From NCBI GenBank assembly GCA_964524955.1, contig CAZGEP010000004.1, positions 3,627-67,626 of the forward strand: a stretch of 64,000 nucleotides of DNA, in the 5' to 3' direction. Positions 1,700 through 43,771 of this stretch are shown piece after piece (within the stretch, counting starts at the first letter, position 1; the number at the start of each line of letters is the position of its first letter). This DNA comes from an uncultured Planctomycetota bacterium (GTDB lineage: Bacteria; Planctomycetota; CAZGEP01). Under the pieces are notes generated by a model, which saw only the letters and a program-made list of their open reading frames with translations, searched no databases and was not told the DNA's origin. The position numbers were made by a program, and so were the translations under genes.

Positions 1700-1956
1700 G
1701 GCAATACCTCCGGACAGGCTCTTCTCCTTTTCACTATTTAAAACGCATGCGTCTTATAAAAGTTCAGAAAAAACTGGACATACAATTCAAATTAAAATAT
1801 ACTTGTTTTAAATTCAGCGCTTGCTGCATTAACTGTTTGATGGCGATTAATTTTCTGGAAAGGACGATTGCGATATTTTTCGACAGTCATTCATTTTCAG
1901 CTATCGACCATAGACCATCGACTATCGACTGCAATTATTTCCAACCGGAGAAATCA

Positions 1957-26738: not shown

Positions 26739-28184
26739 ATGACATCCTGGTCAATGATTTTTGGAATCTTACTGATACTGACATTGCCGATATATGGTCT
26801 GTGGAGTATCGTTGGCGCACTCAGTAGTTTTCACCTTGAAAAATCGTATAAACTGGATATCATCAAAAAAACATGCAATTTTTTGAAGGCACTCAAGCCG
26901 TTGAAAACAACTCATACAATTATTACCGGTGACAGTCGCCAGATGAATCTGGTAGAGGATCAATCCGTTCAGCTTGTCATTACATCACCGCCCTATTGGC
27001 AACTCAAAGATTACGGAACTGAAAACCAGATCGGTTTTCATGAAGATTATGAAACGTATATCAACAATCTGAATATAGTCTGGAAAGAATGTTACCGTGT
27101 GCTGGAAAACGGCTGCCGTTTATGTATAAATATCGGTGATCAGTTTGCCAGAGCAGTTTATTACGGCAGATATAAAATCATTCCAATTCGTACGGAAATC
27201 ATCAAGTTTTGTGAAAGCATTGGATTTGATTACATGGGAGCCGTTATCTGGCAGAAACACACCACAACAAATACAACCGGTGGTGCCTCCTTAATGGGGA
27301 GCTACCCAACACCTCGAAACGGTATCGTATCTATTGATTATGAATTTATTCTCCTATTCAAGAAACTTGGAAAACCTTTAAGGGTCAAAAAAGAGGTCAA
27401 GAATGAGTCAAAGTTGACCAAGGAAGAATGGAAAGAATATTTTTCCGGACACTGGACATTCGGCGGCATACGGCAGAACGGCCACATTGCCATGTTTCCT
27501 GAAGAACTGCCCAAACGATTGATTAAAATGTTCGCTTTTGTCGGAGAAACGGTCCTAGATCCATTTATGGGAAGCGGAACCACAAGCCTTGCAGCCAGAA
27601 ATCTGAACAGGAATTCGATTGGGTATGAAGTCAACCCGGAATTCATTACAGTAGCCAAAGAAAAACTGAATATCGACCAGGGTGATTTTTTCGGCACAGA
27701 GTATCTCTTCAAGAACGACCATTTTAGTCTGAATGTCAACAAAGAGTTGTCTTCTTTGCCGTATCGTTTCAGAGATCCCCACCAACTGGACAAAAAGACT
27801 GACCCAAGAATGATGCAGTTCGGTTCAAAAATAAACAATTCTGCATCTGAAAGAGAAACCTATTATTCTGTAAAAGAGATCATCAGCCCGGAACTGATTA
27901 AATTAAGCAATGGAATTATCATACGCCTGATCGGTGTAAAAGAGAAACCAAATGTCAACGGAAAAGCAACACAATTCCTTAAAACTAAAACAAAGGGACA
28001 GAGGGTTTTCTTAAAATATGACACCCAGAAACACGATGAAGACAATCACTTGATGTGCTATTTGTATTTAAAAAATAAAACATTTATCAATGCCCATCTG
28101 ATAAAAACCGGCCTTGTAGAACCGGATTGTTCGATGAGCTTCAAATACAAAGATAAATTTATGCGCCTGGGAGTGGGAGAATAA
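26739..28184 (+). CDS. Beta-class DNA methyltransferase (N4-C or N6-A) fused to a C-terminal staphylococcal-nuclease (SNase)-like domain
   Basis: Motif IV 'TSPPY' precedes motif I 'DPFMGSGTT'. C-terminal 'IIRLIGV...GKATQFL...VFLKYD...NAHLIKTGLVEPD' is SNase-like. AT-rich. Confidence 0.7.
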   Translation: MTSWSMIFGILLILTLPIYGLWSIVGALSSFHLEKSYKLDIIKKTCNFLKALKPLKTTHTIITGDSRQMNLVEDQSVQLVITSPPYWQLKDYGTENQIGFHEDYETYINNLNIVWKECYRVLENGCRLCINIGDQFARAVYYGRYKIIPIRTEIIKFCESIGFDYMGAVIWQKHTTTNTTGGASLMGSYPTPRNGIVSIDYEFILLFKKLGKPLRVKKEVKNESKLTKEEWKEYFSGHWTFGGIRQNGHIAMFPEELPKRLIKMFAFVGETVLDPFMGSGTTSLAARNLNRNSIGYEVNPEFITVAKEKLNIDQGDFFGTEYLFKNDHFSLNVNKELSSLPYRFRDPHQLDKKTDPRMMQFGSKINNSASERETYYSVKEIISPELIKLSNGIIIRLIGVKEKPNVNGKATQFLKTKTKGQRVFLKYDTQKHDEDNHLMCYLYLKNKTFINAHLIKTGLVEPDCSMSFKYKDKFMRLGVGE

Positions 28185-28820
28185 ATGGCCAAGGAATGGA
28201 TATTAAACAGCGCAATGAACCGTTTCCAGCTGAATTTCAAACGAAATGTTGGCCCTACATCAGAAAGCATACGGGCGTGCGAGCCAAAGACCCTGGAAGA
28301 GTGGAAAGCGTATTATTTCCGGGAAGTTCGGAGCAAAGACCACATCATTGATCTTGGCAAGAAACTTTACATCAAGATTACGGAAGTCATTCAAGCCGAA
28401 GTCGAGCAAATAACAGAGCAAGACTGCATAGACTATATGCTGAAGATGGTCGTTGAGAGAACATTTGATGGATACATCACTGAAATCAAAACGATATACG
28501 GACAAATAGAAAAAGAACTGGGATGCAAGGTAAAACCTTCATCGGATGAATGGGACAGAAAGTTCAACGTGGATTTCTTTATTAAAGTAAACGACTATTA
28601 TCTTGGCCTTCAGATCAAACCGGTAAACGAGGGCATTCAGCTCTCACAAATATATAAAGAAAAAGATCTTCAGAAAACAAGCCATCAGAAATTCACTGAT
28701 CAATTCGGCGGTCAAGTCTTTTATATCTTTTCTACCAAAGTCAGTGGAAATAAAATTATTAAAAATCCGGAAGTTATTGACGAAATCCGAAACGAAATCA
28801 CCCGGCTTAACCATGCCTGA
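28185..28820 (+). CDS. Putative type II restriction endonuclease (PD-(D/E)xK-like), partner of the upstream methyltransferase
   Basis: The ATG abuts the methyltransferase stop (TAAATG). AT-rich. Candidate 'E-x-D...D-x12-Q-I-K' catalytic arrangement. No other family recognised. Confidence 0.4.
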   Translation: MAKEWILNSAMNRFQLNFKRNVGPTSESIRACEPKTLEEWKAYYFREVRSKDHIIDLGKKLYIKITEVIQAEVEQITEQDCIDYMLKMVVERTFDGYITEIKTIYGQIEKELGCKVKPSSDEWDRKFNVDFFIKVNDYYLGLQIKPVNEGIQLSQIYKEKDLQKTSHQKFTDQFGGQVFYIFSTKVSGNKIIKNPEVIDEIRNEITRLNHA

Positions 28821-29685: not shown

Positions 29686-30552
29686 AGACAGTCGATGGTC
29701 AATGGTCTATGGCTAATTGCGCTGAAAACCTCCGAATTGACAGGATAAAGAATGACAAAGTATGCATCGCACGGTCGCCGCAGGCATGCAGTTGATCCGT
29801 CCGCTGACGGAAGACACAGGGGCACGGAGAAAAACAACAGCTAAAGATTTTCAACAACGAAATAGACGAAATAAACGAAAAAACTGCATTGAAAACAGAA
29901 TTATGGGAACGCTGAAGATGCAAGAGACGCTATCAAAAGATCAGCACTGCCACAGCCGGTCATGGCCCGGCGCGTCCGGGGCATCCAGGAGCAGCCGACA
30001 CCGATTACGTCCTTATCCGTATATCCTGTTTATCCTGTAAATCCTGTCCAATTCTCTTTCTTTTTGTTGTTCTGAACTAAGACAAAATAGTAGACGGGAT
30101 TGACGGGTCGGCGGAGCCTTGTTTTTGATCCGCCTAGGCGGAATTGACAGGATGAGAAAAGAACAGAACTCTCCTTGTTCTGCGATTTCAGACTGTCAAT
30201 AAAAAGATGAATCCGCTCATCAAGCGTTTTCTCCCGGTTCTGGCTGGAAAGCAAAATAAACTTACTCGCCCAGATTGCGTGAAACTTAATAGTAGACGGT
30301 TTTACCAGTTTTTTATCCTCTAGATACTGCTGAAATTCTTTCAGAACAGCCCTAATATATTCGTTTCTCCTTAATAGGCAAAGTAAATGCTATTAAAATA
30401 TAGTCATACTATCATACATTCCAATTCGAATATTTCAAAAAAATAATTTTTTATTTGACACGGTTCAGTGGTTTTATAAAATTTACCGTTGTCAGAAATC
30501 ATAACTGTAACCTATACACACTAAATTGTTCCCGTCGCGCTGCGCGCGACGG

Positions 30553-30709
30553 GAACGGCGAGTTGAGGGCTTCGCCCCTCGCCCGATTAGTTCCCTGCGC
30601 GCTGATTCGCGCGCCGAGAACAAATCGTTCGAGGGGTCCATTGGCCTATCAACTCCGGGCGCTGAAGCGCCCTCCGATGATAGGTCAACGGCCCCTCAAC
30701 TCGCCGTTC
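30553..30709. repeat. GC-rich, multi-hairpin palindromic element (MITE/REP-like) with about 17-bp terminal inverted repeats
   Basis: Left TIR 'gaacggcgagttgaggg' and right TIR 'ccctcaactcgccgttc'. Internal hairpins include 'gagggcttcgcccctc', 'gcgcgctgattcgcgcgc' and 'gggcgctgaagcgccc'. Confidence 0.5.
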
Positions 30710-30720
30710 GAAGCAAGAGA

Positions 30721-30942
30721 ATGAAGAAACTGAATCGCGAAGAATTGATCATCCTTGTTCAACGCATCATGGATGTCGATGGCACAGAAGAAGAGATCGA
30801 CCAGATGATGGACACATTGGAGGCCAACGTGATCCACCCGGAAGTCTCCGATCTGATATTCTACTCAAAGAAGGAAGACCCGGCCGCAGAGGAGATCGTG
30901 GACGAAGCACTGGCTTACAAGCCCATCATTCTTGGGCCGTGA
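30721..30942 (+). CDS. Colicin/pyocin DNase immunity protein (Im7/Im9 family)-like small protein
   Basis: 73 aa. '...HPEVSDLIFYSKKEDP..EEIV' parallels Im9 '...[23 protein letters not shown]'. Confidence 0.55.
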   Translation: MKKLNREELIILVQRIMDVDGTEEEIDQMMDTLEANVIHPEVSDLIFYSKKEDPAAEEIVDEALAYKPIILGP

Positions 30943-31112
30943 GCGAGACTTCGAACAAGGTCGGTGGAGCGTACGGCTAAAGCCGCCGCTCACCGACGGC
31001 GTTCGCCGGAAAAAGACAGAGATTCCGCAGATTTTCTACGATTTCCGTAAAGCTATGGACCCGAAGATGGGTCTATACTCATAGCAAAGGAAATTTCTGC
31101 AAGGACAACGAC

Positions 31113-32066
31113 ATGAAAGACTTGGCGAAAACCATACAAAACGCCTGTTCTGGCGACCTATACTCATTCGGCAGACTTGTCACCTATTATCAGGATATGG
31201 CATACGCTTATGCGTACTCGCTTTTAGGCGACTTCCATCTTGCCCAAGACGCTACCCAGGAAGCATTTATTGATTCCTATCGGCACCTATCATCGCTTCG
31301 GGTTCCCGAAGCGTTCCCCGGGTGGTTTCGACGGATTGTGCTCAAGCACTGTAATCGACTCACCAGAGGCAAGAGCATACAAACCCTGCCGCTTGACGTG
31401 GCGGGAGAGCAGGAGAGTCCCGAACTGCGGCCCGACGAGGTGCTGATTCGGAGTGAAATACGCTCTTCCGTTCTTGGCGCACTACGGGCGTTGTCTCAGG
31501 ATCAACGGACCGTAGCCTCACTTTACTATATCAACGGCTATTCCCAAGCCGAGGTAGCCGATTTTCTCGATGTGCCGAAAACAACTGTAAACAATCGCCT
31601 TCATGCCGCAAGGCGACGACTAAAGGAAAGGATGGTCACCATGGTGCAGCAAGAACTGACGAACAATGCTCTGCCAAAGGACGAGTTCTGCCACGTAGTG
31701 CTAGACAAGCTCTCGAAGCAACAGGCGGGCCTGATGGCCGGCAGTCCAGTCAACAAGTTTGCCGATCTTGTCATTACCCAAGCCCTGCACGACAAGTGCA
31801 AGCAGATGAGCCTATCCCTCGATGAGAATGGCACCGTCTGCCTGAGTGCACTGTATGATCGCGAATGGAAGGAATGGGCTCCGCCTCCAGCTCGCATCAT
31901 CCCTGCGCTTCTTTCGTTTTTGGCTGCCGCTGCAACATCGGATTCAAACTCCGACGAGTTGGCTGCAGAACTTCCTTTTGTTGCGTCAGATGGTCAGAAG
32001 TACATCGCAACCATCGAGGTGAAGAACATTACCGTCGGGATCACGTTGCCGGAAACGGGGCACTGA
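31113..32066 (+). CDS. ECF-type RNA polymerase sigma factor with a roughly 140-aa C-terminal extension
   Basis: Region 2 'DATQEAFIDSYR' and region 4 'LSQDQRTVASLYYINGYSQAEVADFLDVPKTTVNNRLHAARRRLKE'. Extra C-terminal domain of unknown fold. Confidence 0.7.
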   Translation: MKDLAKTIQNACSGDLYSFGRLVTYYQDMAYAYAYSLLGDFHLAQDATQEAFIDSYRHLSSLRVPEAFPGWFRRIVLKHCNRLTRGKSIQTLPLDVAGEQESPELRPDEVLIRSEIRSSVLGALRALSQDQRTVASLYYINGYSQAEVADFLDVPKTTVNNRLHAARRRLKERMVTMVQQELTNNALPKDEFCHVVLDKLSKQQAGLMAGSPVNKFADLVITQALHDKCKQMSLSLDENGTVCLSALYDREWKEWAPPPARIIPALLSFLAAAATSDSNSDELAAELPFVASDGQKYIATIEVKNITVGITLPETGH

Positions 32067-32166
32067 TTGATCCGGCGAACAACCACATTCAGCATATTGT
32101 CGCTGGCGCGCCAGATGCTGATGTGAAGCGTTATGTGCAAGAAGACAAAAGGAGAAATCAAAGAAT

Positions 32167-32757
32167 ATGAGCGTAGAATTACTTTCTGACTTTATCAGAG
32201 AAAAATATGAGGTGCATGAATGGAAACATGCGTGTGCCATATTGAAAGAGGATTTTACGAACGAATGGAATGATATTATATCTGTATTGGAAAGTTTTCG
32301 CCTAAAAAAGAGTTGGATTACAACTCCAGGAGGCAGGAAATCAAAGGTTTCTGCATATATTGATGGCTATTTATATGATAGGGATTGGGTTGAAAAAGAA
32401 TTTGAGACGAAAGTGACTGTTGATGATCATACAATGGACACACCAACTCATAAAATCGACTGTTTTAAAAATAGAGTGGCTCTTGAAATTGAGTGGAACA
32501 ACAAGGACCCTTTTTATGACCGAGACCTAAATAATTTCAGATTACTGTTTGATTTACGTGCAATTAGCGTTGGAGTGATCATTACACGCTGTGAAGATCT
32601 TCAAGATATTTTCAATGATTTGGGAAGAGGGGCATCTTATGGTGCATCTACAACGCATATGGGGAAATTACTCCCAAGGATTGAAGGTGGAAGTGGAGCT
32701 GGTTGTCCACTCGTTGTTTTTGGAATATCAAAATCACTTTATGTGGAGGATTGCTAA
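32167..32757 (+). CDS. Type II restriction endonuclease of the BglII/BamHI/BstYI family
   Basis: 'KIDCFKNRVALEIEWNNKDPFYDRDLNNFRLL' aligns with BglII 'DIDFGKRDTLVEVQFSNYPFLLNNTVRSELF' (D-x8-E-x-E/Q). RBS 'aaaggag'. AT-rich. Confidence 0.6.
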   Translation: MSVELLSDFIREKYEVHEWKHACAILKEDFTNEWNDIISVLESFRLKKSWITTPGGRKSKVSAYIDGYLYDRDWVEKEFETKVTVDDHTMDTPTHKIDCFKNRVALEIEWNNKDPFYDRDLNNFRLLFDLRAISVGVIITRCEDLQDIFNDLGRGASYGASTTHMGKLLPRIEGGSGAGCPLVVFGISKSLYVEDC

Positions 32758-32759
32758 TT

Positions 32760-33410
32760 ATGAACGCATCTGATGATCTGTTAAATTTTATTGGAAAAAG
32801 AAAATTTTCAACAATACTTGCTGACCCTCCATGGCAGTTTCAAAACAGGACGGGCAAAATGGCACCAGAGCATAAAAGGTTATCTCGGTACCCTACGATG
32901 AAATTACAAGAAATTAAAGATTTGCCGGTTGAAGCTATTGCGGAAGACCGAGCACATCTTTATTTGTGGGTTCCAAATGCACTTTTATCTGAAGGCATGC
33001 AAGTTATGGAGAATTGGGGATTTAAATATAAAACAAATCTAATATGGTACAAGATTAGAAAAGACGGCGGCCCCGATAGAAGAGGTGTTGGATTTTATTT
33101 TAGAAATGTGACTGAAATAATTCTTTTTGGTGTTCGGGGCAAGAATATCAGAACACTACAACCCGGAAGAAGTCAGGAAAACATTATATCATCAAGAAAA
33201 AGAGAACACAGTAGAAAACCAGATGAACAATATGATTTAATTGAATCTTGTAGTTGGGGACCTTTCTTAGAACTTTTTGGTAGAGGGCCAAGAGAAGGCT
33301 GGACAACTTGGGGCAATCAGGCAGAAGAATATACCCCTGATTGGGAAACATATTCAAACCATTCTAATGGGGATAGAATAATACCGTTTAAGAAAGTCAG
33401 GACAGGTTAA
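32760..33410 (+). CDS. MT-A70-family N6-adenine DNA methyltransferase
   Basis: 'ILADPPWQF' (DPPW) motif. RBS 'ggagga'. Starts 3 nt after the REase stop. Confidence 0.7.
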   Translation: MNASDDLLNFIGKRKFSTILADPPWQFQNRTGKMAPEHKRLSRYPTMKLQEIKDLPVEAIAEDRAHLYLWVPNALLSEGMQVMENWGFKYKTNLIWYKIRKDGGPDRRGVGFYFRNVTEIILFGVRGKNIRTLQPGRSQENIISSRKREHSRKPDEQYDLIESCSWGPFLELFGRGPREGWTTWGNQAEEYTPDWETYSNHSNGDRIIPFKKVRTG

Positions 33411-33423
33411 TCACTAGAATCGT

Positions 33424-34269
33424 ATGCATTATTATACGCAAAACTATAACAATGTGATGGATTTTGAGCGATCATGCATGGTTGCAGAAGAAGCTAATCC
33501 ACCATTCTATTATGATGTTTCTAATGGAATAAAACTATATAATGCAGACACTTTTTCATTTTTCAAAAATATACCAGATGGTTGTGTTGATCTAATATTT
33601 GCCGATCCTCCGTATTTCCTGTCTTCAGGAGGTATAACTTGCCATAGTGGTAAAATGGAAAATGTAAATAAGGGGGAATGGGATAAATCAAAACCAATTG
33701 AGGAAATTCACAATTATAACAAACAGTGGCTATCAGAGTGCAATCGTATTTTGAAAAAGCATGCTACTATTTGGGTTTGTGGAACATTTCACAATATTTT
33801 TTCTGTCGGATTCGCTTTGCAAGAATTAGATTTTAAAATATTAAACAATATAGTGTGGGAAAAGAAAGATCCTCCGCCGAATTTAACAAAAAAATACTTT
33901 GTCCATGCTTCTGAACATCTTCTTTGGGCATCAAAAACAAAATATTCTAAGCATATCTTTCATCAAGATGCTCTCAAAGAAGTTTCAAACGGGGAACCAA
34001 TGAAGTCTGTATGGAGGGATATATGGAAATTGCCATCAGTAGATCATTTAGAGAAAGTTTTTGGTAAACACCCAACACAAAAACCAGAAGAGGTTATTCG
34101 GAGAGCAGTGCTTGCATCAAGTAATATTGGGAGTCTGGTTTTCGATCCATTTTGTGGTAGTGGGACAACAGGAGTTGTCTGTAGAAGAATGAACAGAAGG
34201 TTTGTTGGCGTTGATAATAATTTAAAGTACTTGGATATCGCAAAAAAAAGAATAGCATCAGTAAAATGA
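33424..34269 (+). CDS. Beta-class DNA methyltransferase (N4-cytosine or N6-adenine; DPPY)
   Basis: Motif IV 'FADPPY' precedes motif I 'DPFCGSGTTG'. Confidence 0.7.
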   Translation: MHYYTQNYNNVMDFERSCMVAEEANPPFYYDVSNGIKLYNADTFSFFKNIPDGCVDLIFADPPYFLSSGGITCHSGKMENVNKGEWDKSKPIEEIHNYNKQWLSECNRILKKHATIWVCGTFHNIFSVGFALQELDFKILNNIVWEKKDPPPNLTKKYFVHASEHLLWASKTKYSKHIFHQDALKEVSNGEPMKSVWRDIWKLPSVDHLEKVFGKHPTQKPEEVIRRAVLASSNIGSLVFDPFCGSGTTGVVCRRMNRRFVGVDNNLKYLDIAKKRIASVK

Positions 34270-34367
34270 AAAATAGAGAGAAATTGCACATAACAAATCA
34301 CTGCACTGGATTTTTACTCCGCTGCGCTCCGTAAAAACCAGTGAGTTCAGTCGTTGGCGCCACTGCA

Positions 34368-35801
34368 ATGAATAAAAACAAGCCAAATATCATTCTGTTC
34401 ATCACGGAACAACACCGCGGTGACTGTCTCGGCATAGAAAACCACCCCGTGTTGATGACCCCGAACATGGACGCCATCGCGGGCGCGGGCGTCCGTTTCA
34501 CCCGGGCCTACTCCAACTGTCCGACCTGCATTGCCGCGCGACGCACGATTCTGTCCGGCCAGTTCCCCCCCACCCACGGTATGGTCGGATATCAGGAGGA
34601 TGTACCCTGGGAAATCGAGGACACCCTTCCTGCGGTCCTGTCGAAAGCGGGTTACGAAACCGCCTGGATCGGACGCAGCATGCACCAGTACCCGATCGAC
34701 AAACCGTTCGGGTTCGAGCACTACGTCCGAAGCGGGCTCGACGCGGCGAGCCCCTACATGCGTTTCTTTCGCGAACGCCGACCCGACGACTGGGAAGCCC
34801 AATTCGGCACCGGCATCAGGAACAACGATTGGACCTCGCGGCCCTGGCATTTGGACGAGGACCTGCATCACACGAGCTGGACGGTCCATGAAGCGTTGCG
34901 CTTTCTCAGAGACCGCGATACGACGCGGCCCTTCTTCCTGGTGGTTTCGTTCCTTGCCGCCCATCCGCCCCTGGTGCCGCCCGCGTTCTACCTGGAGCGC
35001 TACATCCGCACCGGAGTTCCTGATCCCGTGATCGGCGACTGGGCCGAGCCGCCTCCCAATGGCGGCAAGGGGCTGGATATCGGCGGACACCGGGTGGACC
35101 TGAAAGGGGAAGCCCTGCTATGCGCGCGAGCCGGCTACTACGGGCTAATCAACCACATGGACGATCACATCCGCCGCCTCCTTAACCCCGTGGCCGGAGT
35201 GGACCGCATGACGGGCAACAACACGGCCGTCATGCTGACAAGCGACCATGGCGAGATGCTTGGCGACCACTATCGGTGGCACAAGGTCGTCCCCTACGAG
35301 CCGTCCGCGCGCATCCCGATGCTGCTGCGTGCTCCGGCACACTTCGGAATCGAGCCCGGAACCGTGATCGACCGGCCCGTTTGCCTGACGGACGTCATGC
35401 CGACGTTGCTCGACCTGGCGGGCACGCCCGTGCCGCCAGGCGTAGAGGGACTGAGCCTCTTGCCGCTGCTACGCGGCGAAGAGACATCCTGGCGCGACTA
35501 TCTTCACATCGAACATGCGCCCATGCACCATGCGCTGACGGATGGTCGGGAAAAATATGTCTGGTTCGTCACCGACGGCCGCGAGCAGCTCTTCTGCCTG
35601 GACAACGATCCCTCGGAGTGCCATGATCTGGCCGGTTGTCCCGCGGCAGCGGAACGCCTATCACACTGGCGGGGACGAATGATTCAGGAACTGGACGGCC
35701 GCCCGGAGGGTTTCTGTGATAGCGGAACCCTCATTCCCGGCAGTGAGTACAAACCTGTGTGCTCGCGCGCCAACAAGCCGGATGCTCGCGACGGCTCATA
35801 G
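34368..35801 (+). CDS. Sulfatase, no signal peptide, variant FGly motif C-I-A-A-R
   Basis: 'MNKNKPNIILFITEQHRGD' and 'CPTCIAARRTILSGQ'. High GC. Confidence 0.75.
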   Translation: MNKNKPNIILFITEQHRGDCLGIENHPVLMTPNMDAIAGAGVRFTRAYSNCPTCIAARRTILSGQFPPTHGMVGYQEDVPWEIEDTLPAVLSKAGYETAWIGRSMHQYPIDKPFGFEHYVRSGLDAASPYMRFFRERRPDDWEAQFGTGIRNNDWTSRPWHLDEDLHHTSWTVHEALRFLRDRDTTRPFFLVVSFLAAHPPLVPPAFYLERYIRTGVPDPVIGDWAEPPPNGGKGLDIGGHRVDLKGEALLCARAGYYGLINHMDDHIRRLLNPVAGVDRMTGNNTAVMLTSDHGEMLGDHYRWHKVVPYEPSARIPMLLRAPAHFGIEPGTVIDRPVCLTDVMPTLLDLAGTPVPPGVEGLSLLPLLRGEETSWRDYLHIEHAPMHHALTDGREKYVWFVTDGREQLFCLDNDPSECHDLAGCPAAAERLSHWRGRMIQELDGRPEGFCDSGTLIPGSEYKPVCSRANKPDARDGS

Positions 35802-35839
35802 CCGCGCGAGATCCGCGACGTTCGCTCAACTGAAGAAAC

Positions 35840-37159
35840 ATGGAGATGTGCATGACACATAAGAATATCCTCCTAATTACGACAGATCAGCAGAGTTCCA
35901 CCATGCTAAGCTGCAGCGGTAATCCTGACCTGCACACACCACACATTGATACATTGGCGTCGGATGGTGTGCGCTTCGAAAAAGCATATGCAGCCCAACC
36001 GCTTTGTATTCCACAACGCTGTTCTTGGTACACGGGCCTCATGCCACACCGCCACGGAATTACTTTCAATGTGACAAACAAAGACATCCAGGCAGAATCA
36101 ATGATGGGGCAGATATTTCGGGACGCGGGCTACGCAACCGGATATTCCGGAAAGTGGCACATCAATACTTCGCCTGAAAACAAACCATTCCACGGATTTG
36201 AGTGGATGAACAATATCCGGTGCAACGGTGCAGACGCGGGGATTGCGGCTGACTTTGAAACGTTTCTCAGTATGAATTGTGACCGACCGTTCATCTTTTC
36301 AGCCTCATTCAATAATCCCCATAACATATGTGAAGCCGCTCGCGGAGGCCCATTTCCCGACGGCGAACCGGGCTTGCCAGAGAATACGAACCAGTTGCCT
36401 CGACTTCCGGAGAATTTCGGCGTGCCCGAAAGGGAACCTTCCGTGATCCGCGAAGTGCAAAATATGTTGAGAATAAGTAACTATCCAACGAGCAACTGGG
36501 ACGAGATGCGATGGCGTCTGCACCGCTGGTTCTACTGCCGACTTACGGAAATTGTAGACAGGCGCATTGGCGGGCTTCTTGAAACCCTGCAACAAAGAGG
36601 TCTGAGCGACAACACGCTTATTGTCTTTACTAGTGATCATGGAGACGGCAACGCCCACCACCAATGGAACCAGAAACAGGTATTGTATGATGAATCGGCG
36701 AGGGTGCCCTTTATTGTGAGCCGGCCAGGTAGCAGAATGAATCGTCTCGACGGAAAACAGCTCGTCAATACAGGGATTGATCTCATTCCTACATTATGCG
36801 GGCTTGCCGAGATTGACTGTCCGCCTCACCTGGATGGTCATGATTGGTCCGAGGCGTTGTCAAACGACGATCTTCCATCACGGCGAGACCATGTGATTAT
36901 CGAGACGGAATTTGGAACGTTCGGAAAGCCATTGGGGTATCGGGGACGGGCGGTGCGCACTGGGCGCTATAAATACATGGTTTATGATCGGGGTGAAAAC
37001 CGTGAGTATTTTTGCGATATGAATAACGACCCCGGCGAGACTATCAACCTTGCCGGCATCCCTGACCATCAAGAGGAATTGCTTAGTCACCGCGCCCTTC
37101 TGCGCGACTATATAGCCAAAACCGACGACATATTTCCTGTTGAGATGCTACCGGCTTAA
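35840..37159 (+). CDS. Sulfatase, no signal peptide (C-I-P-Q-R)
   Basis: 'NILLITTDQQ', 'CIPQRCSWYTG' and 'GKWHI'. Confidence 0.8.
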   Translation: MEMCMTHKNILLITTDQQSSTMLSCSGNPDLHTPHIDTLASDGVRFEKAYAAQPLCIPQRCSWYTGLMPHRHGITFNVTNKDIQAESMMGQIFRDAGYATGYSGKWHINTSPENKPFHGFEWMNNIRCNGADAGIAADFETFLSMNCDRPFIFSASFNNPHNICEAARGGPFPDGEPGLPENTNQLPRLPENFGVPEREPSVIREVQNMLRISNYPTSNWDEMRWRLHRWFYCRLTEIVDRRIGGLLETLQQRGLSDNTLIVFTSDHGDGNAHHQWNQKQVLYDESARVPFIVSRPGSRMNRLDGKQLVNTGIDLIPTLCGLAEIDCPPHLDGHDWSEALSNDDLPSRRDHVIIETEFGTFGKPLGYRGRAVRTGRYKYMVYDRGENREYFCDMNNDPGETINLAGIPDHQEELLSHRALLRDYIAKTDDIFPVEMLPA

Positions 37160-37274
37160 CTGTTGTCCTTGATCATAGGCAAATTAACGAAGAGGGAAAT
37201 AGCAGGAGCGAACAAGCCGTTGCTCGCGACGGCTTATAGCCGCACGAGAACGGCGAGTTCGGAGACAAGACAAT

Positions 37275-38396
37275 ATGCTAAAATATTTATTGGCCTCACT
37301 GCTTCTGTGCTTCTCTCTTGTCTATGGCAAGGAGATCTCGCAGTGGCAGAGGAACAAGCGCAGCCTTCTGACAAACTTCAACAACATGTATCAGCCGTGT
37401 GTCGTAGAAACTGGGGGCAAGTATCCCTATAAGATGTGGTTTTTCGGCTGGGCGGCTGCCAGGACGAACCCCGGTTGGCCGGGGTGCGATGCGATATTTC
37501 ACGCACGTTCAAAAGATCTGAAGACCTGGGAAGTCTACAGCCAGGACGGGAAATGGGATACCACCATGAATCCAAAGGCCTGGGTGCCTGTCCTTCACGC
37601 CAGCGACCGCTGGTACGATGCCTGGCATGTCGGCGACCCGTCCGTTGTGCTCAGAGACGGCAAGTTGTTCATGGCCTACAGCGCCACATCCAAGCACTTC
37701 AGTAAGCGTGAAGGCTATCCCGCCACTATGGTGCAGTGTGTCATGGGGGCGGTATCCGAAGATGGTATTCACTGGAAAAAAACCCAGCAGCCTCTCCTGA
37801 TTCGCGCTGGTGACACCGCCAACCCTGAGCCCGAACAGGAACGGATCGGCGATTTCCACCGCCCATGCCTGCTCTGGGATAAAGGGAAATGGCGACTCTG
37901 GTTTGATTACTGGTTGCCCGGCAAGGGGGTCTGCATGGGCTACGCAGAGAACAAAGGGGATTTTGCGGCCGCAGGCGGTTTCAAAATCCAGAACGACCTT
38001 ACGCAACCGCTGATTGAGGGCTGGCCGAACCCTGACATCATCCGTATCGGTGAGACCTACCACAGTTTTTCCGATGCCCCTGGATATCCTGGTGAATCGG
38101 GGTGGAAGGGACGACAGCTCCGCGAAGCAGTTTCGAAAGACGGTATCACCTGGGAACTGCGCGACTTTATTCCTCCAGACGAGGACACCGATGCTAATCA
38201 CGTTCCACAGGCCTTTACCACGACCCTTGATGGCAAGCGCTGGCTCTATATCTTCTATGCCACCCAGATTGGTAACGGGCTAAACGATGGGAGGTACCAC
38301 TTTGAGTACAACCGCATACGGGCGATGCGACGACCAATCGACAACTCCGAACAATCTCCTGCAGGCGACAGCCTAAAGGCCGCGCCTGAGGAGTAG
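37275..38396 (+). CDS. Secreted glycoside hydrolase, 5-bladed beta-propeller type (GH43/GH117/GH130-like)
   Basis: Signal peptide. 'WHVGDPSVVLRDGKLFMAYSA' matches the GH43-like propeller motif. Confidence 0.45.
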   Translation: MLKYLLASLLLCFSLVYGKEISQWQRNKRSLLTNFNNMYQPCVVETGGKYPYKMWFFGWAAARTNPGWPGCDAIFHARSKDLKTWEVYSQDGKWDTTMNPKAWVPVLHASDRWYDAWHVGDPSVVLRDGKLFMAYSATSKHFSKREGYPATMVQCVMGAVSEDGIHWKKTQQPLLIRAGDTANPEPEQERIGDFHRPCLLWDKGKWRLWFDYWLPGKGVCMGYAENKGDFAAAGGFKIQNDLTQPLIEGWPNPDIIRIGETYHSFSDAPGYPGESGWKGRQLREAVSKDGITWELRDFIPPDEDTDANHVPQAFTTTLDGKRWLYIFYATQIGNGLNDGRYHFEYNRIRAMRRPIDNSEQSPAGDSLKAAPEE

Positions 38397-38418
38397 CGTT
38401 CGAACAAAAGGAGCCACT

Positions 38419-40167
38419 ATGAGGAACTCACAATTGGAATTGGATCTTTCCAGAATCGCTTTCAGCCGTTATGAAAGCAATCTCGCGATTTGCGTTTGCG
38501 GCCAATCGAAAGCGCTGTGGCTACGTCACATCTATGGCGGCAGAGCAACAAATCTATTCCGCCTGGATGTTATGGGCTTCTCGGGCATTACAAATCCAAC
38601 GGTTCGTGCCGTTCCCGGGTTAATGTGGTTGTCCGACACTCATGGCCGAATCGAGATCGTGATGCCGGAACCAAACACGATCCGCATCCGCAGTCATAGG
38701 ATGAATCTGCACCTTGTCGGCTCGGATTCACGTCGGTGTGATTTGATGATTCCGGCAGCCGACGATCAATGGCGATGCATTATGAGCAGAGCAAAACTCC
38801 TGTTCACGCCGATTTCCGGGACCATGAAGGTAGAAGCTCCTTGGATGCCAGCGAAGGGCACGAAGCAAAAGCATCATGGCACCCATCCGATCCATGTTAC
38901 GATTGATGGTGATTCTGATGAATGGGAGTTTCAGATCAACACCTATGAGAGCGAGATAAACCCTCCGGTTATCCGTAGCCGTTTCGCCGAAGCGCACCGA
39001 CAGAGCAAAGAGTCCTTCGCCTTTTGGCTCAGGAATACAACTTCTGTGCCGGAACGGTATCAGCCGGCTCGCGAATTGGCGGCCTATGTCGGTTGGTCGG
39101 CTGTCGTTCCGGCCGCCGGGAACTACCATGCGCCATCGATGCTCATGAGCAAAAACTGGATGGTGAATACCTGGAACTGGGATAACTATATCAACGCTTG
39201 GGCGAGTGTCTACCGCGATCCGGATTTTGCCTGGGACCAGTTTATGTTGCACATCCGGCATCAGCATCCGACTGGTGGTCTGGGCGATGGCATCAACGAG
39301 CAAAGCATCGGTTGGTCCTACACCAAGCCCCCTGTGCATGGATGGATCCTGCGACGGATGGCGGAAGCCAACCCCGCCATCGACCGCACGCGTATAGCTC
39401 AGGTGTATGAGCCAATATGTCGATGGACGGAGTGGTGGTTTCGCTATCGCGATGACGATGATGACGGCATCTGCCAGTATCACCACGGTAACGACAGCGG
39501 ATGGGATGATGCCACGGCATTTGACATCGGCTGTCCCAATGAGGCGCCGGACCTCAATGCGCTTCTGATCCTGCAGATGGATGCGCTCGGCGAATTCGCA
39601 CAATGCCTCGGTAAACATGACGAGGCAGCGGTTTGGGGCAACCGCTCACGTGAAATGCTGGAACGCTTCGTGGAACACAGTTGGCGCGAAGGACGGTTCG
39701 CCGCCATGGTCAGCGGGAGCCATGCCTATGATCCCGGGAACCAGTGTTTGTTGAGCTATATCCCCTTGGTACTCGGGAGCCGATTGCCGAAGGCAATTCG
39801 GAAAGAGATGATTTGTGGCCTGATGCGGCAGGGAGGATTTCTAACAGAATGGGGGCTGGCCACGGAATCAGTTGACAGCCCGGACTACCTGTCTTGTGGC
39901 TACTGGCGTGGATCGATTTGGCCACCGCCTATGTTGATGATCGTGGACGGCTTACACGATGCCGGGGAGAATGAGCTTTCGGAGGACCTTGCCGAGCGCT
40001 TTTGCCGATTGGTGGCCACACACGGCTTCGGTGAGAACCACGATGCGCTCACTGGCGAGATTCATTACGACCCGGCATACACGTGGTCAGCGAGTGTGTT
40101 TCAGCTGTTCGCACACTTGTATCTGCATGACAGAACAAAAGAACAAGAATCAAGTTCTCCTGGTTGA
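38419..40167 (+). CDS. Cytoplasmic (alpha/alpha)6-barrel glycoside hydrolase (GH63/GH37/GH15-like)
   Basis: Trp-rich 'NTWNWDNYINAW' and 'GNDSGWDDATAFD' motifs typical of alpha-alpha-toroid glycosidases. No signal peptide. Confidence 0.4.
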   Translation: MRNSQLELDLSRIAFSRYESNLAICVCGQSKALWLRHIYGGRATNLFRLDVMGFSGITNPTVRAVPGLMWLSDTHGRIEIVMPEPNTIRIRSHRMNLHLVGSDSRRCDLMIPAADDQWRCIMSRAKLLFTPISGTMKVEAPWMPAKGTKQKHHGTHPIHVTIDGDSDEWEFQINTYESEINPPVIRSRFAEAHRQSKESFAFWLRNTTSVPERYQPARELAAYVGWSAVVPAAGNYHAPSMLMSKNWMVNTWNWDNYINAWASVYRDPDFAWDQFMLHIRHQHPTGGLGDGINEQSIGWSYTKPPVHGWILRRMAEANPAIDRTRIAQVYEPICRWTEWWFRYRDDDDDGICQYHHGNDSGWDDATAFDIGCPNEAPDLNALLILQMDALGEFAQCLGKHDEAAVWGNRSREMLERFVEHSWREGRFAAMVSGSHAYDPGNQCLLSYIPLVLGSRLPKAIRKEMICGLMRQGGFLTEWGLATESVDSPDYLSCGYWRGSIWPPPMLMIVDGLHDAGENELSEDLAERFCRLVATHGFGENHDALTGEIHYDPAYTWSASVFQLFAHLYLHDRTKEQESSSPG

Positions 40168-40267
40168 GCGTAGAGATGAAAGTGATCGTTCGAACCATCA
40201 GGTGCAGGCGACGCTTGACAGCGCGCCTCAACTCGCCGTTGGGCGAACCCCAAGAAGAGTTTTATAA

Positions 40268-40570
40268 ATGGCTTTGATTAAGTGTCCTGAATGCAATAAT
40301 GACGTATCGACCTCGGCAGCGTCGTGTCCCAAATGTGGCGCACCTATAGCGTCACAAACTAGCCGCATCACCGAACCAACAATACCGAGGGGAAAAGTAC
40401 AATGCGGGCATTGCCGGGCAATCGTAAAACCTCAAAAAATGGAAGCTGGATGTAGCTCACTGATCATAGCTATACTACTTCTCTGCCTTGGTATTATCCC
40501 TGGAGTAATCTATATCATTTGGGAAAGTAGCAGAAAACAATGTCCAAACTGCAAACTGCCAATAAAGTGA
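40268..40570 (+). CDS. Zinc-ribbon domain protein with a C-terminal TM helix
   Basis: 'CPECNN...CPKCG' and 'CGHC...CPNC', plus a hydrophobic stretch 'LIIAILLLCLGIIPGVIYIIW'. Confidence 0.5.
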   Translation: MALIKCPECNNDVSTSAASCPKCGAPIASQTSRITEPTIPRGKVQCGHCRAIVKPQKMEAGCSSLIIAILLLCLGIIPGVIYIIWESSRKQCPNCKLPIK

Positions 40571-40582
40571 ACGACGCCCAAC

Positions 40583-40611
40583 AACGGTTGAGGGCTTCGC
40601 CCCTCGCCGTT
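40583..40611 (+). repeat. GC-rich hairpin 'aacggttgagggcttcgcccctcgccgtt', a copy of the repeat family at 30563..30583
   Basis: The 21-mer 'ttgagggcttcgcccctcgcc' is identical at 30563 and 40588. Lies 13 nt after the zinc-ribbon gene stop. Confidence 0.6.
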
Positions 40612-40675
40612 GGACCAGCCATATCGATAGCCAGACCGAATCTGTGGCGCAGGGCGCGAAGCGAGTATTCAGAGT

Positions 40676-43471
40676 ATGTCAAACCATTGGTACAACATCG
40701 AAGGCTGTCTGACATTCTATCGTGATCTGAAAGGGGTAGAGCAGTGGCTCATACGCGGCCACAAGGAGTTACCCACCTCGGACTTCAGCGGGCTTCTCGA
40801 TACTGTCATGCGTTGGCTAGTTGACAACCCAGCGTATGGCGACATCGCGGCGGATGTTGTTCAGCTCCTCTCCGGGTACGACCCCAAATACACTGCGCAG
40901 TGGCACGAGGCTGAGGAGGCCCGCAGGCGTGAAGCGGAACTCCGCGCACGAGAGATACAGGAAGCACAGGAACGCCGGAAGAAGGAAACTGAACTACTCG
41001 CACAGCAGCAACGAGAGGCTGAGGCGCGTCAAAGACGTGAGCGCAAACTTGCGGAGAAAAAGCAGGCACTCATGGACCGTTGCCACGAGTGGTTTCAGAC
41101 GGACTTCCTTACAGCGGACAGGCGCTTCAGAGACGATGCCGACCGCAAGCTGCTAACGGCTCGTGAGTATTCTGAGTTGAAGACAGCCTTTGTCCAGGGT
41201 TGGGTCCACACAGAGCTTCACCTGTCGCTTGATATCGAGCAGGCTCAGGCGGTCGCCGGTGGACCCCGCGACATGCTGGTTGTTGCCAGAGCGGGTGCTG
41301 GTAAGACCCGCACGCTAGTCACCCGCGCCGTCTTTCTCCAGAAGCACTGCGGTGTCCCGCCTGCCGCCCTGCTTCTGCTTGCGTTCAATCGCGATGCTGC
41401 GCGGGAAATGCAGCAGCGGCTGCATGAAGCCTTGGGTGGCGATTTGCCACACATCATGACCTTCCACGCATTGGCCTATGCGTTGGTGCATCCGGACGAG
41501 GAACTCGTCTATGACAAGCCCTCAGCCGGAAGTCTCGGCCACAGCCGTGCGATTCAACAAGCCATCGATGAACACCTGCAGGCGGACCGGTACCGTGCCA
41601 TGATCCGCGACCTGATGCTCTTGCACTTCAAAGATGATTGGGAGCGCATAGTTGCCGGTGGGTTCAACCTGCCAATCGAGGAGTTGATCGAATACCGGCT
41701 GGCATTGCCGCGCGAGACTCTGAGGGGCGAGTACGTCAAGTCCTTCGGAGAGAGACTAATCGCCAACACACTCTTTCAGAACGACGTGGAATACAAATAC
41801 GAACGAAACTATCGGTGGAATGGCGTCAACTACCGGCCCGACTTCACTATCCTGCTGCCCGGACGGCGTGGCGTTGTAATCGAGTACTTTGGTCTCGAAG
41901 GTGAACGCGACTACGATGAGATGTCAGCAGACAAGCGGGCGTTTTGGGCTTCCCGCCAGGGTTGGACCCTGATCGAATTCTACCCACAAGATATTGCATC
42001 TCAAGGTGTTGATGGTTTTACCGAGTGCATTGTGAAGCGTTTAGCTGATGCCGGGGTCACAACTCGTTCTCTTTCAGATGACGAAATATGGCAGCGCATT
42101 CGCAGACGGGCCATCGACAGTTTCACAGGCGCAGTTCGGTCGTTAGTCAGTCGCTGCCGGAAACTGAACCTAACGGGCGAGCAGTTGGCTGGCTTAATCG
42201 ACGGTCATACCCCGATTACTGAAGCAGAACGGTTGTTTCTGGCTGTGGGAGCGTCTGTATACGTTGCGTATCTGGAGCGCCTCCGGTCTTCTCAACAAGA
42301 GGATTTCGACGGCCTGATGTGGAGGGCAATCACCTTGGTGGATTCTGGCCATAGCCAGTTTGCACGGGACAGAGGGCGCGAGCGCGGAGACTTGCGTAGA
42401 ATCCGCCATGTGCTGGTAGATGAGTTTCAGGACTTCTCTCAGATGTTCTACCGCATGGTGCAAGGGATTCGGACACTCAGTCCGCACGCCGACTTCTTCT
42501 GTGTGGGTGACGACTGGCAAGCAATCAACGGCTTTGCTGGCTCGGACTTGAGATTCTTCCGTGAGTTCAGCGAATTGTTCCGAGAGCCAACAACCTTTAC
42601 CGTCAGCACCAATTATCGTTCACCAGCAGGAGTTGTTGAACTCGGGAATGCCCTGATGGTAGGACGCGGGAGTCCCGCCAAGCCACACCGAGAAGACGCC
42701 GGGTGTGTGAGACTGGCAGACTTAGGCAGTTTCATGCCGTCACCCGCCGAACGAGCACGACATGAAGGGGATGATGCGACCCCATTTCTGCTTCGGCTGA
42801 TTCGGCGGTTGCTTGATTGTGGCGATTCCATCGTGCTCCTCTCGCGACGTAACGGCGTTCCTTGGTATGTGAAGTACCATGCTGACCTGCCAGCCGCTGT
42901 CGATGGGCTTGAACGCTTCGCTGAGCACATCCGCATGTTCTTACCGGAAGACGAGCGCGGCCGCCTGACCGCCTCGACTGCCCACCGGTACAAAGGCCGT
43001 GAACGAGAGGCTGTAATCATACTCGACGCCGACGAAGGCTGCTATCCTCTCATCCATCCCAACTGGGAATTCCTCCGAGTGTTTGGCGATACGTTGGAAG
43101 CCATTGAGTCAGAGGAGCGCCGGCTATTTTACGTGGCGCTGACCCGATCCCAGAAGACGCTGGTCGTTCTTGTCGAGAGCGAGAGGCGCGAAAGCCCTTA
43201 CCTGAGAGAGATCAAAACGCGCGAGGATATTCAAGCAATCGAATGGGAGCAACTCCGCCCAGTGCCTTCGCTTGATGGCGACAGACTGGAAGTGCACGTG
43301 TCAAATGCATATGAGGTCCACAATGAACTGGCGGCGCAGGGATATCGATGGGAGGAGGGCCAGAAGTACTGGTATCGTCTGGTGATGGCGGAAGGTTTCG
43401 ACTTGCGCAACCTGAAGCGTCAAGCGTGGGCGCGACAGGGCGTGTGTATCGACGGGTTACTGTTTTCTTAA
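40676..43471 (+). CDS. UvrD/Rep-like SF1 helicase with an embedded Vsr/DUF559-like PD-(D/E)xK nuclease-like domain and an N-terminal coiled coil
   Basis: Motif I 'ARAGAGKTRT', II 'VLVDEFQDFS', III 'VGDDWQAINGFAGSD', IV 'TNYRS', V/VI 'TAHRYKGRE...LFYVALTRSQKTL'. Insert at about aa 345-440, 'NYRPDFTILLPGRRGVVIEYFG'. Confidence 0.7.
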   Translation: MSNHWYNIEGCLTFYRDLKGVEQWLIRGHKELPTSDFSGLLDTVMRWLVDNPAYGDIAADVVQLLSGYDPKYTAQWHEAEEARRREAELRAREIQEAQERRKKETELLAQQQREAEARQRRERKLAEKKQALMDRCHEWFQTDFLTADRRFRDDADRKLLTAREYSELKTAFVQGWVHTELHLSLDIEQAQAVAGGPRDMLVVARAGAGKTRTLVTRAVFLQKHCGVPPAALLLLAFNRDAAREMQQRLHEALGGDLPHIMTFHALAYALVHPDEELVYDKPSAGSLGHSRAIQQAIDEHLQADRYRAMIRDLMLLHFKDDWERIVAGGFNLPIEELIEYRLALPRETLRGEYVKSFGERLIANTLFQNDVEYKYERNYRWNGVNYRPDFTILLPGRRGVVIEYFGLEGERDYDEMSADKRAFWASRQGWTLIEFYPQDIASQGVDGFTECIVKRLADAGVTTRSLSDDEIWQRIRRRAIDSFTGAVRSLVSRCRKLNLTGEQLAGLIDGHTPITEAERLFLAVGASVYVAYLERLRSSQQEDFDGLMWRAITLVDSGHSQFARDRGRERGDLRRIRHVLVDEFQDFSQMFYRMVQGIRTLSPHADFFCVGDDWQAINGFAGSDLRFFREFSELFREPTTFTVSTNYRSPAGVVELGNALMVGRGSPAKPHREDAGCVRLADLGSFMPSPAERARHEGDDATPFLLRLIRRLLDCGDSIVLLSRRNGVPWYVKYHADLPAAVDGLERFAEHIRMFLPEDERGRLTASTAHRYKGREREAVIILDADEGCYPLIHPNWEFLRVFGDTLEAIESEERRLFYVALTRSQKTLVVLVESERRESPYLREIKTREDIQAIEWEQLRPVPSLDGDRLEVHVSNAYEVHNELAAQGYRWEEGQKYWYRLVMAEGFDLRNLKRQAWARQGVCIDGLLFS

Positions 43472-43679
43472 ATTGTTTATCCATAATTCTGCCTCCATAT
43501 CGATATAACCGGCCGAGGTAAAACGTAACTCGGAAAAAATAAAAAAATATTGGAATTGTTATTTTATTAAACAAGCAGCGGACTGACAGGGAAAAGTGCT
43601 TGATGTAAAAGATACGTATACGCGAAAAGCGATATCAGACAGGGAAAGAGAAAGGTATTATCCTCTCCCTGGCAACACG

Positions 43680-43726
43680 TTACAAAAATATAACCGCCAC
43701 AGCATACTGCCGTGGCGGTTATATTT
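43680..43726 (-). terminator. Rho-independent terminator for 43772..47551
   Basis: Perfect 15-bp stem 'aaatataaccgccac/gtggcggttatattt' with an 11-nt loop, followed on the minus strand by a U-run. Confidence 0.6.
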
Positions 43727-43771
43727 ACGTGATGTTTATTCTTTCGACGAAACTGCGAAACATACCATCTA

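Follow-up and report, generated by a model that had tools for sequence, protein, structure and literature searches.

The strand of an attC site that integron integrases recombine is the bottom one, and the described features of these sites are a central spacer left unpaired, bases that lie outside the helix on the R''-L'' arm (extrahelical bases) and a terminal structure that varies and is branched in the Vibrio cholerae repeats (VCRs; PMC2727003). Some cassettes carry no gene at all: paralogous, conserved non-coding cassettes of Vibrio have been proposed to be selfish elements (PMC1382264), and Vibrio gene-less cassettes have been found to hold non-coding cargo besides attC, often with promoter activity, in tests against size-matched controls of 450-650 bp (PMC11014356). 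Here we describe a 178-bp element in a 64-kb stretch (hereafter the window, 64,000 nucleotides of contig CAZGEP010000004.1) from an uncultured Planctomycetota bacterium. The element is very probably the gene-less first cassette of a chromosomal integron, consisting only of an outsized, branched attC-type site, and the integrase gene of this integron has decayed to a 65-codon stump. Support comes from its position, boundaries and separability, from covariation and strand asymmetry of its fold, and from its multi-copy spread and association with integron integrases. Branched attC sites, gene-less cassettes and their paralogy are already known, and the element extends that known system; no description of an attC-only or 'empty' cassette, or of the element's family, was found in literature coverage that is incomplete, which makes this weak evidence.

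The VCRs (123-128 bp) are similar to the element in being repeated, highly similar sites in chromosomal arrays, with a long stem formed from both ends, a branched terminal structure, R'' and R' boxes with a G|TT crossover, and use of the bottom strand (PMC2727003). They differ in standing at the ends of cassettes that bear genes, and their structure includes a central spacer of 5 unpaired nt along with three extrahelical bases; the element is a cassette by itself, spans ~160 nt between R'' and R', and its 17-bp stem is perfect and lacks both of these features. With the gene-less cassettes of Vibrio superintegrons it shares the lack of an open reading frame (ORF), the presence of several copies per array, high conservation between hosts and restriction to integrons. 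An internal promoter has been shown for many Vibrio and Treponema gene-less cassettes; the element, in contrast, has no cargo and no promoter-like site (consensus scan), and its hosts belong to different phyla. Group IIC-attC introns and IS1111-attC elements likewise have the integron cassette array as their niche, but they are 1.3-2 kb long, use attC as their insertion target and bring a reverse transcriptase or transposase of their own. The element has no coding content, and its own limits are the crossover points of a cassette.

All coordinates refer to the window unless a locus label (L001-L130) precedes them. The element and the integron platform ahead of it are made up as follows:

30180-30374, minus strand: remnant of an integron integrase gene (intI), its first ~65 codons, with no start codon and the remainder deleted.
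30438-30411, minus strand: putative Pint-like promoter, sigma-70-like, directed toward the intI remnant (consensus scan).
30455-30482, plus strand: putative Pc-like promoter, sigma-70-like, TTGACA-16-TAAAAT, directed into the cassettes (consensus scan).
30495-30528, plus strand: attI-like site, ending ...CTAAATTG, with the crossover after G30528.
30529-30706, plus strand: very probable gene-less cassette of 178 bp, a recombination site alone, TTCCCG...CTCGCCG; the similarity of relatives spans G|TT to G|TT.
30528-30540 / 30544-30556, plus strand: hairpin with 13-bp arms, the R' side GTTCCCGTCGCGC being the exact complement of the R'' side GCGCGACGGGAAC.
30553-30709, plus strand: attC-type three-way junction, with the outer stem at 30553-30569/30693-30709, arm 1 at 30574-30636 and arm 2 at 30637-30692.

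As a single strand the region folds into the hairpin and then the three-way junction, with two long imperfect palindromes within it; from R'' the order is outer stem, two arms and R', R'' and R' lie ~157-163 nt apart, and the right R' is GTTCGAA at 30706-30712. The predicted fold has -122.8 kcal/mol on the plus strand, against -74.5 ± 4.6 kcal/mol for shuffles (z = -10.6), and -131.5 kcal/mol on the minus strand (z = -11.4). An earlier note made from the letters of the window alone had recognized a structured element here, and much of its anatomy holds. Folding goes far beyond that of shuffles on both strands. No Rfam family matches the element (0 matches in the window at the gathering threshold, the best sub-threshold one being a 26-bit chance match to a microRNA hairpin). 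The repeat scan bears out the 17-nt terminal arms, GAACGGCGAGTTGAGGG at 30553-30569 being perfectly complementary to 30693-30709, and the hairpin placed immediately upstream is present and is longer than claimed. The seemingly separate hairpin is formed by the cassette start and its own R'' side: the opening 12 bases of the cassette, TTCCCGTCGCGC, pair with GCGCGACGGGAA, whose end is the AAC of the cassette's own R'', around a TGC loop. As for the internal hairpins, 'gcgcgc...gcgcgc' and 'gggcgc...gcgccc' are found at the arm tips, but gagggcttcgcccctc forms no separate hairpin in the minimum-energy fold; its halves are split, with GAGGG closing the outer stem and GCCCCTC opening arm 1.

The element leaves no room for cargo, with just the 3-nt loop between the cassette start and R'' and no ORF; because length differs by 1-9 nt among subtypes, no reading frame is kept. 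Folded as a circle, 76-79% of its bases are paired. It is confined to one locus within the window, where no second full copy was found, and a consensus scan found no sigma-70-like site inside 30529-30706. Its shape also brought hammerhead, retron, IS110 bridge-RNA and Y-RNA identities to mind; these were set aside, since neither conserved cores nor partner genes are present and the integron context accounts for the ends.

The intI remnant lies ~150 bp upstream of the element on the opposite strand. In BLASTP its peptide aligns with residues 1-65 of the intact 443-aa integrase of locus L128 (32% identity, E = 1e-11), and we therefore place an intI stump at 30374 to 30180; Pfam gave no match for this minus-strand peptide. 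The L128 integrase scores 416 bits on TIGR02249 'integron integrase' (cut-off 265), and the integrases beside relatives of the element, which score 416-426 bits, are 45-47% identical to the sequence that we take to be IntI1. The two divergent promoter-like sites at 30411-30482 match the consensus at 11/12 and 10/12 positions, and in the intact platforms of L036, L128, L019 and L092 an AT-rich stretch with -10-like boxes lies at an equal distance from the crossover; judged by these motifs, the sites are predicted to work as promoters. The attI-like site of the window aligns with '...CCGATCCnGTATA(A/T)TAATTG|TT' beside intact intI in L019, L036, L128, L092 and L121, and also with L061, where it stands directly before an ORF cassette; the cognate attI of the L128 and L036 integrases ends ...GTATAATAATTG|TT. 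Because full-length integrases lie divergently ~450 bp from the element's left flank in L019, L036, L128, L092 and L121, we assign the left-flank class '...GTATA(A/T)TAATTG|T(T/A)CGG' to attI.

The element-associated integrases are 443-459 aa long (L128 9088-10419 and L036 2784-4163, both minus strand) and have a ~110-residue N-terminal extension, without a Pfam domain, before the usual SAM-like and catalytic domains; the window remnant corresponds to the start of this extension. Alignment of the window peptide with L001-L004 by tblastn gave noise. Six-frame inspection of L002 revealed a 5'-truncated integron integrase abutting the AT-rich stretch, with its C-terminal ~150 aa kept (1859-2326, minus strand). 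At this locus, L003 4167-4350 and L001 3290-3700 the integrase is truncated or absent, and the attI-proximal AT-rich stretch and the element are kept; in L003 the housekeeping genes pdxS/pdxT/yhbY lie directly upstream. These loci indicate that intI has been lost repeatedly while the array stayed in place. In the window, CAGGAT-based short repeats (29735-29760, 30005-30045 and 30135-30160), including GAATTGACAGGAT(A/G)A twice and a run GGACAGGATTTACAGGATAAACAGGATA on the minus strand, occur in the 500 bp that separate the intI stump from a prenyltransferase gene, a place expected to hold most of intI.

Relatives of the element were obtained from two scans. When one genome per species was scanned for an exact 19-mer, the full element turned up in one Proteobacteria metagenome-assembled genome (MAG) and in two Syntrophales/Syntrophus MAGs, with a shortened form on a second contig of the Syntrophales MAG. 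A scan of metagenomes with the arm-1 pattern added relatives from sediment, sludge and digester samples, on at least 120 contigs. At least 151 instances were found, 97 of them full length among the matches listed, with up to four per contig at spacings of 0.6-6.8 kb. Relatives are 75-87% identical to the window copy, the Proteobacteria MAG copy being at 87%; alignment of the MAG copies (A1) shows near-identity from the hairpin to ...CTCGCCGTT and none beyond, and arm 2 differs between the window and MAG copies with compensating changes. A search for the 17-mer in viral contigs gave six chance matches inside coding sequence, without the element architecture.

The right end of the element, ...CTCGCCGTT followed by an RRRY-like box, is invariant, and the alignment of relatives breaks exactly there. 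All 97 full copies among the matches listed have GTT, followed by A/C/G, G/T, G/C/A, C/T and then unrelated sequence. Two classes of left flank are seen in the alignment of metagenomic copies (A2): the attI class, with 27 instances among the matches listed, and an ordinary attC 3' end, '...GCTGATTTnnnCG|TTCGG', with 77. Downstream of the element in the MAG loci there are small unrelated ORFs with imperfect palindromes between them that end GTTGGGC, GTTAGC, GTTCGGT and the like, an arrangement that identifies these loci as integron cassette arrays. At all of the loci examined the element lies within an integron array, either at attI beside intact integrases or between ordinary cassettes, and in one orientation; the copies of multi-copy contigs are uniformly oriented in the direction of the cassette ORFs. 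A same-strand ORF of at least 50 codons is found within 120 nt after 88 of 107 unique right ends. The first bases of a cassette (the TT... of R') are expected to be complementary to R'' of its own attC, and across loci the matching R'' (8 nt) was present downstream of the cassette in 44 of 212 cases, compared with 10 for mismatched controls. The element is also not simply the 5' untranslated region of the Im9-like gene that follows it in the window, the case that the earlier note had set against its own proposal: in the 97 full-length relatives listed, the sequence diverges right after GTT and unrelated genes follow.

Deletion variants of the element recur (L004 2945-3065, L032, L127 and L124; L014 and L059/L104/L106/L114). 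In one, arm 2 and the outer arm on the right are missing, and its end reads ...TCGAGCCGTTGGCG; in others the hairpin and/or the outer arm on the left are missing, and the remainder is joined to the attC before it. As the same variants are present in different samples, they are propagated forms rather than assembly errors. The copy in L038 (reverse complement) is broken after arm 1 by tandem GGGGGTGAGTAGGGGACG / GGGTAGACTAGGGGACGCCCTTAAATAA repeats, which may be the end of another inserted element. Fifteen of the 151 instances listed lie within 75 nt of a contig end (loci L011-L130), and many contigs begin or end inside the element; since a multi-copy element breaks short-read assemblies, copy numbers per array are underestimated.

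Selection on the structure was examined with an RNAalifold consensus of 34 representatives with less than 93% identity (A2). The hairpin, the outer stem and both arms are recovered, with 50 pairs, 17 of which have changes on both sides. Paired cells amount to 95.6%, as against 87.7% in shuffles (0 of 500 shuffles as high) and at most 46% in slid-register controls, and there are 123 doubly changed cells against 41 in shuffles. A compensatory change is evident in the hairpin, where GTTCGG/CCGAAC (UA) occurs in 21 and GTACGG/CCGTAC (AU) in 12 of the 34 sequences. When 60 unique R''-to-R' sequences were folded on both strands, the bottom strand proved the more stable in all 60, the mean difference being 12.9 kcal/mol with DNA and 20.8 kcal/mol with RNA parameters; these variants are related and so are not 60 independent trials, and all subtypes agree. 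Counts of G-T versus A-C on the MAFFT alignment gave no decisive strand signal, and folding of each sequence is clearer. As modelled, the strong covarying fold and the bottom-strand bias agree with use of the bottom strand as the substrate.

This asymmetry bears on the best of the alternatives, that the element is a structured RNA (a 5' leader, riboregulator or small RNA) which is transcribed from the Pc-like promoter and influences how one or more cassettes downstream are expressed. A strong promoter-like site (11/12) does lie 46 nt upstream, at least 27 relatives likewise come right after attI, the fold is very stable and covaries, and some gene-less cassettes are known to affect expression of neighbouring cassettes (PMC11014356). 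The sense transcript, however, has the top-strand sequence, which folds worse in all 60 variants, with RNA parameters too, so that a role as a DNA site is favoured over one as sense RNA. Moreover, the 77 listed copies that follow other attC sites lie deep in arrays, the downstream genes are mutually unrelated, there is neither an Rfam family nor a promoter-like site inside the element, and an RNA would leave its ends at recombination points unexplained; we regard this alternative as unlikely. A gene-less cassette could also influence, passively, how the next gene is translated. In the window the element is presumably transcribed from the Pc-like promoter, and its sole likely effect today is that of a very stable leader structure before the Im9-like gene, whose expression it would possibly affect negatively.

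The element is a separable unit and not part of attI. In L061, with the same integrase type and the same attI ('...CCGATCCCGTATATTAAATG|TTGGGCGCC...'), an ORF cassette follows directly and the element is absent. One cassette has the element before it in L011 and an ordinary attC before it in L039, and the same holds for L039 compared with L020; L112 and L020 have left flanks in common, with the element next in one and another cassette in the other. All of these presence/absence junctions are exactly at G|TT. An extended, structured attI or an accessory site of the integron platform would fit the position directly after attI-like sequence in the window and in the 27 metagenomic instances listed, and the element is the first unit in all five of the intact element-retaining platforms inspected in detail. 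Against this stand L061, the 77 listed copies that follow ordinary attC sites in arrays, up to four per contig, and the left- and right-flank polymorphisms, in which the element comes and goes as a unit; this proposal, which we consider very unlikely, is already largely refuted by L061 and the internal copies.

The earlier note had proposed, besides a structured RNA, something like a miniature inverted-repeat transposable element (MITE) or a repetitive extragenic palindrome (REP). The element is indeed a discrete unit, non-coding, mobile and repeated, and it has terminal inverted repeats and a conserved secondary structure; the assignment to MITEs or REPs is very improbable. Perfect terminal inverted repeats, nested palindromes, the lack of an ORF and many copies in metagenomes would all suit a transposase-mobilized MITE or an element of the REP or bacterial interspersed mosaic element type. 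The check for a target-site duplication was negative, however, the flanks being ..AAATTG | TTCGAAG.., and each end is an integron crossover point, G|TT, the flank on the right being GTTRRRY-like. Copies on one contig share the orientation of the cassette ORFs, every locus inspected is within a cassette array or at attI, and no transposase or REP-associated tyrosine transposase gene lies beside the element in loci with listed ORFs, the latter being absent from the window as well; such an origin is thus scarcely credible. The element is similar to MITEs by analogy, as it is short, non-coding, structured and multi-copy and its recombinase would be encoded elsewhere, but it would go with a tyrosine recombinase and a folded single strand in place of a transposase, has no target-site duplication and, in every locus inspected, is inserted only at attI or attC. 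Equally improbable is a second, accessory attC of the upstream cassette, a composite double site that is not independently mobile: in arrays the element always comes directly after an ordinary attC, and in some contigs (e.g. L039) ORF cassettes and elements alternate regularly, but at array starts (the window and the 27 instances listed) it follows attI without an upstream cassette, the same attC 3' ends elsewhere stand directly before other cassettes, and cassettes further down the arrays of the window and L003 have ordinary attC sites only.

The properties of a cassette with its attC site are found together here: the array is one-directional and lies by intI and attI, the ends are at G|TT, the start is complementary to R'', and the unit is present or absent as a whole. 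Those of a gene-less cassette are found too, with no ORF, paralogous copies and conservation between hosts, and the element has the branched terminal structure. Several points nevertheless count against assignment as a gene-less attC-type cassette. The usual length of attC sites is 57-141 bp, which the ~160 nt of the element exceed. Neither the window copy nor subtype A has an unpaired central spacer, the R box running into the perfect 17-bp stem, and neither has extrahelical bases. The commonest subtype has two unpaired bases on the L'-R' arm in the alignment consensus and, in the single-sequence fold, a 1x1 mismatch ~14 bp from the R box instead; neither irregularity is the canonical extrahelical base on the R''-L'' arm. 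The window boxes, R' GTTCGAA (two deviations) and R'' CGGGAAC, are poor fits to GTTRRRY/RYYYAAC, only the AAC of R'' matching RYYYAAC (relatives have ACCGAAC), and one subfamily has GTA instead of GTT at the left boundary. All relatives were found by the arm-1 pattern, and conservation of arm 1 is for this reason a matter of ascertainment; non-integron copies would escape that scan only if they were without arm 1, and the family, known from MAGs and metagenome contigs, may be dispersed outside arrays as well. Finally, we infer that the element is selfish from the absent gene and the copy number. Removal of extrahelical bases does not abolish recombination and relaxes strand choice (PMC2727003); the orientation of the element is nevertheless uniform within every multi-copy contig.

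In the mechanism that we propose for such a gene-less cassette, the integron integrase would excise the element as a circle, in which the hairpin would be stacked with the outer stem into an unbroken helix of ~26 bp, with the three-way junction as its cap. In a next step the bottom strand, in its folded form, would recombine with attI, giving the first position as in the window, or with another attC. By this route the element could spread as a selfish passenger of integrons, as a MITE is to a transposon; a selfish passenger is most likely because no gene is carried and up to four copies occur in a few kb. The window copy would be a fossil that cannot move, since its integrase is gone. A broader proposal, tentative and in our view somewhat less probable than its contrary, is that 'attC-only' mini-cassettes (~178-190 bp, with a fully self-paired circle) are cargo-less integron parasites across phyla in anoxic sediments and digesters, often taking the newest (attI-proximal) slot, alternating with gene cassettes and being recombined although they lack the unpaired spacer and the extrahelical bases, which are held to direct both the binding of the integrase and the choice of strand. 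If this is true, the integrase clade with the ~110-residue N-terminal extension would have relaxed or different recognition rules. If it is recombined, the element would be a natural, abundant substrate whose orientation is fixed even though the canonical spacer and extrahelical bases are missing, and with it the structural rules of attC recognition could be tested, and its family would be a concrete candidate for a 'selfish cassette'.

The element also serves as a marker, by which 30.2-40.6 kb of the window is very probably a chromosomal integron with a dead integrase, and its ECF (extracytoplasmic function) sigma factor, complete restriction-modification (R-M) system, sulfatases and glycoside hydrolases are mobile cassettes. 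At least seven ordinary cassettes follow the element, up to ~40.6 kb:

30707-31001, plus strand: Im9-like immunity-protein cassette, gene at 30721-30942 (73 aa; Colicin_Pyocin PF01320, 24.9 bits, cut-off 21.2); start GTTCGAAG, exact complement of R'' CTTCGAAC at 30949-30956.
31002-32130, plus strand: ECF sigma factor cassette (Pfam sigma-70 r2/r4), attC end GTTATGT; start GTTCGCCG, complementary to R'' CGGCGAAC at 32073-32080.
32131-34353, plus strand: R-M system cassette of 2.2 kb (Pfam Endonuc-BglII, MT-A70 and N6_N4_Mtase), attC end GTTGGCG; start GTTATGTGC, 9-nt complement of R'' GCACATAAC at 34286-34294.
34354-35820, plus strand: first sulfatase cassette (Pfam Sulfatase); start GTTGGCGC, R'' GCGCCAAC at 35767-35774.
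35821-37257, plus strand: second sulfatase cassette (Pfam Sulfatase); start GTTCGCTC, R'' GAGCGAAC at 37206-37213.
37258-40238, plus strand: two-gene glycoside-hydrolase cassette, R' GTTGGGC; the 3' arm of its attC is the 'TIR core' (TIR, terminal inverted repeat) of the earlier note, 40226-40240.
40239-40609, plus strand: zinc-ribbon/LITAF-like membrane-protein cassette, attC at 40575-40615 holding the recurrent 21-mer and ending GTTGGAC; start GTTGGGCG, complementary to R'' CGCCCAAC at 40575-40582.

In six of the seven the start is an exact 8-9-nt complement of the cassette's own R''. The two-gene glycoside-hydrolase cassette has the least certain boundary, because its R'' is only partly complementary (..TCGAAC, 40190-40195). 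The attC of the Im9-like cassette (30949-31007) folds with a 3x3 unpaired spacer and one extrahelical base. Neither the Im9-like protein nor the polyprenyl synthase encoded ahead of the integron has an exact match among recorded proteins.

The earlier note had also reported partial copies of the element further along the window, and the sequence matches themselves are real and non-random. The 21-mer recurs exactly at 40588-40608, where 0 are expected by chance, and the terminal arm has imperfect matches at 40225-40241 (2 mismatches) and 37248-37264 (3 mismatches), among four matches in all against 0.15 expected. They are attC sites of other cassettes in the array, however, and not copies of the element. 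Given the complementarity of cassette starts and R'', the matches at 37248, 40226 and 40588 are parts of the attC sites of the second sulfatase, glycoside-hydrolase and zinc-ribbon cassettes, respectively; the 'variant' at 37248-37264 is the 3' end of the second sulfatase attC, and the glycoside-hydrolase attC arm (40226) and the zinc-ribbon attC (40588) are homologous to the outer part of the element. The attC sites of the two sulfatase cassettes are homologous to each other. The sulfatase and glycoside-hydrolase genes at 34354-40238, which have the look of host polysaccharide degradation, appear to be integron cassettes of 1.4-3 kb. The R-M system of the third cassette is complete and of BglII type, with the restriction enzyme, MT-A70 and an N4/N6 methyltransferase in a single cassette with a GC content of 0.35-0.40.

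No attC was recognizable after the UvrD-like gene (40676-43471) that follows the zinc-ribbon cassette. The AT-rich gap that separates the UvrD-like gene from a convergent gene for a 1259-aa glycoside hydrolase holds an inverted repeat at 43677-43735 (28-nt arms, 82% complementary, 3-nt loop), probably a bidirectional terminator at the far end of the cassette region. The genes from 23.6 to 43.5 kb are all on the plus strand and form an odd assortment, which includes the cassette genes above and the UvrD-like helicase, and GC content varies from 0.35 to 0.61 per kb in the window. Outside the array the window looks chromosomal, with RecN-like, Ser/Thr kinase and aspartokinase genes and many sulfatases. 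A stretch of low GC content (0.40) at 26739-28820 encodes an MjaI-type restriction enzyme and a DNA methylase whose tail is SNase-like, and it is flanked by a polyprenyl synthase/DUF116 gene and a prenyltransferase gene that are apparent partners, which suggests an R-M module inserted just upstream of the integron.

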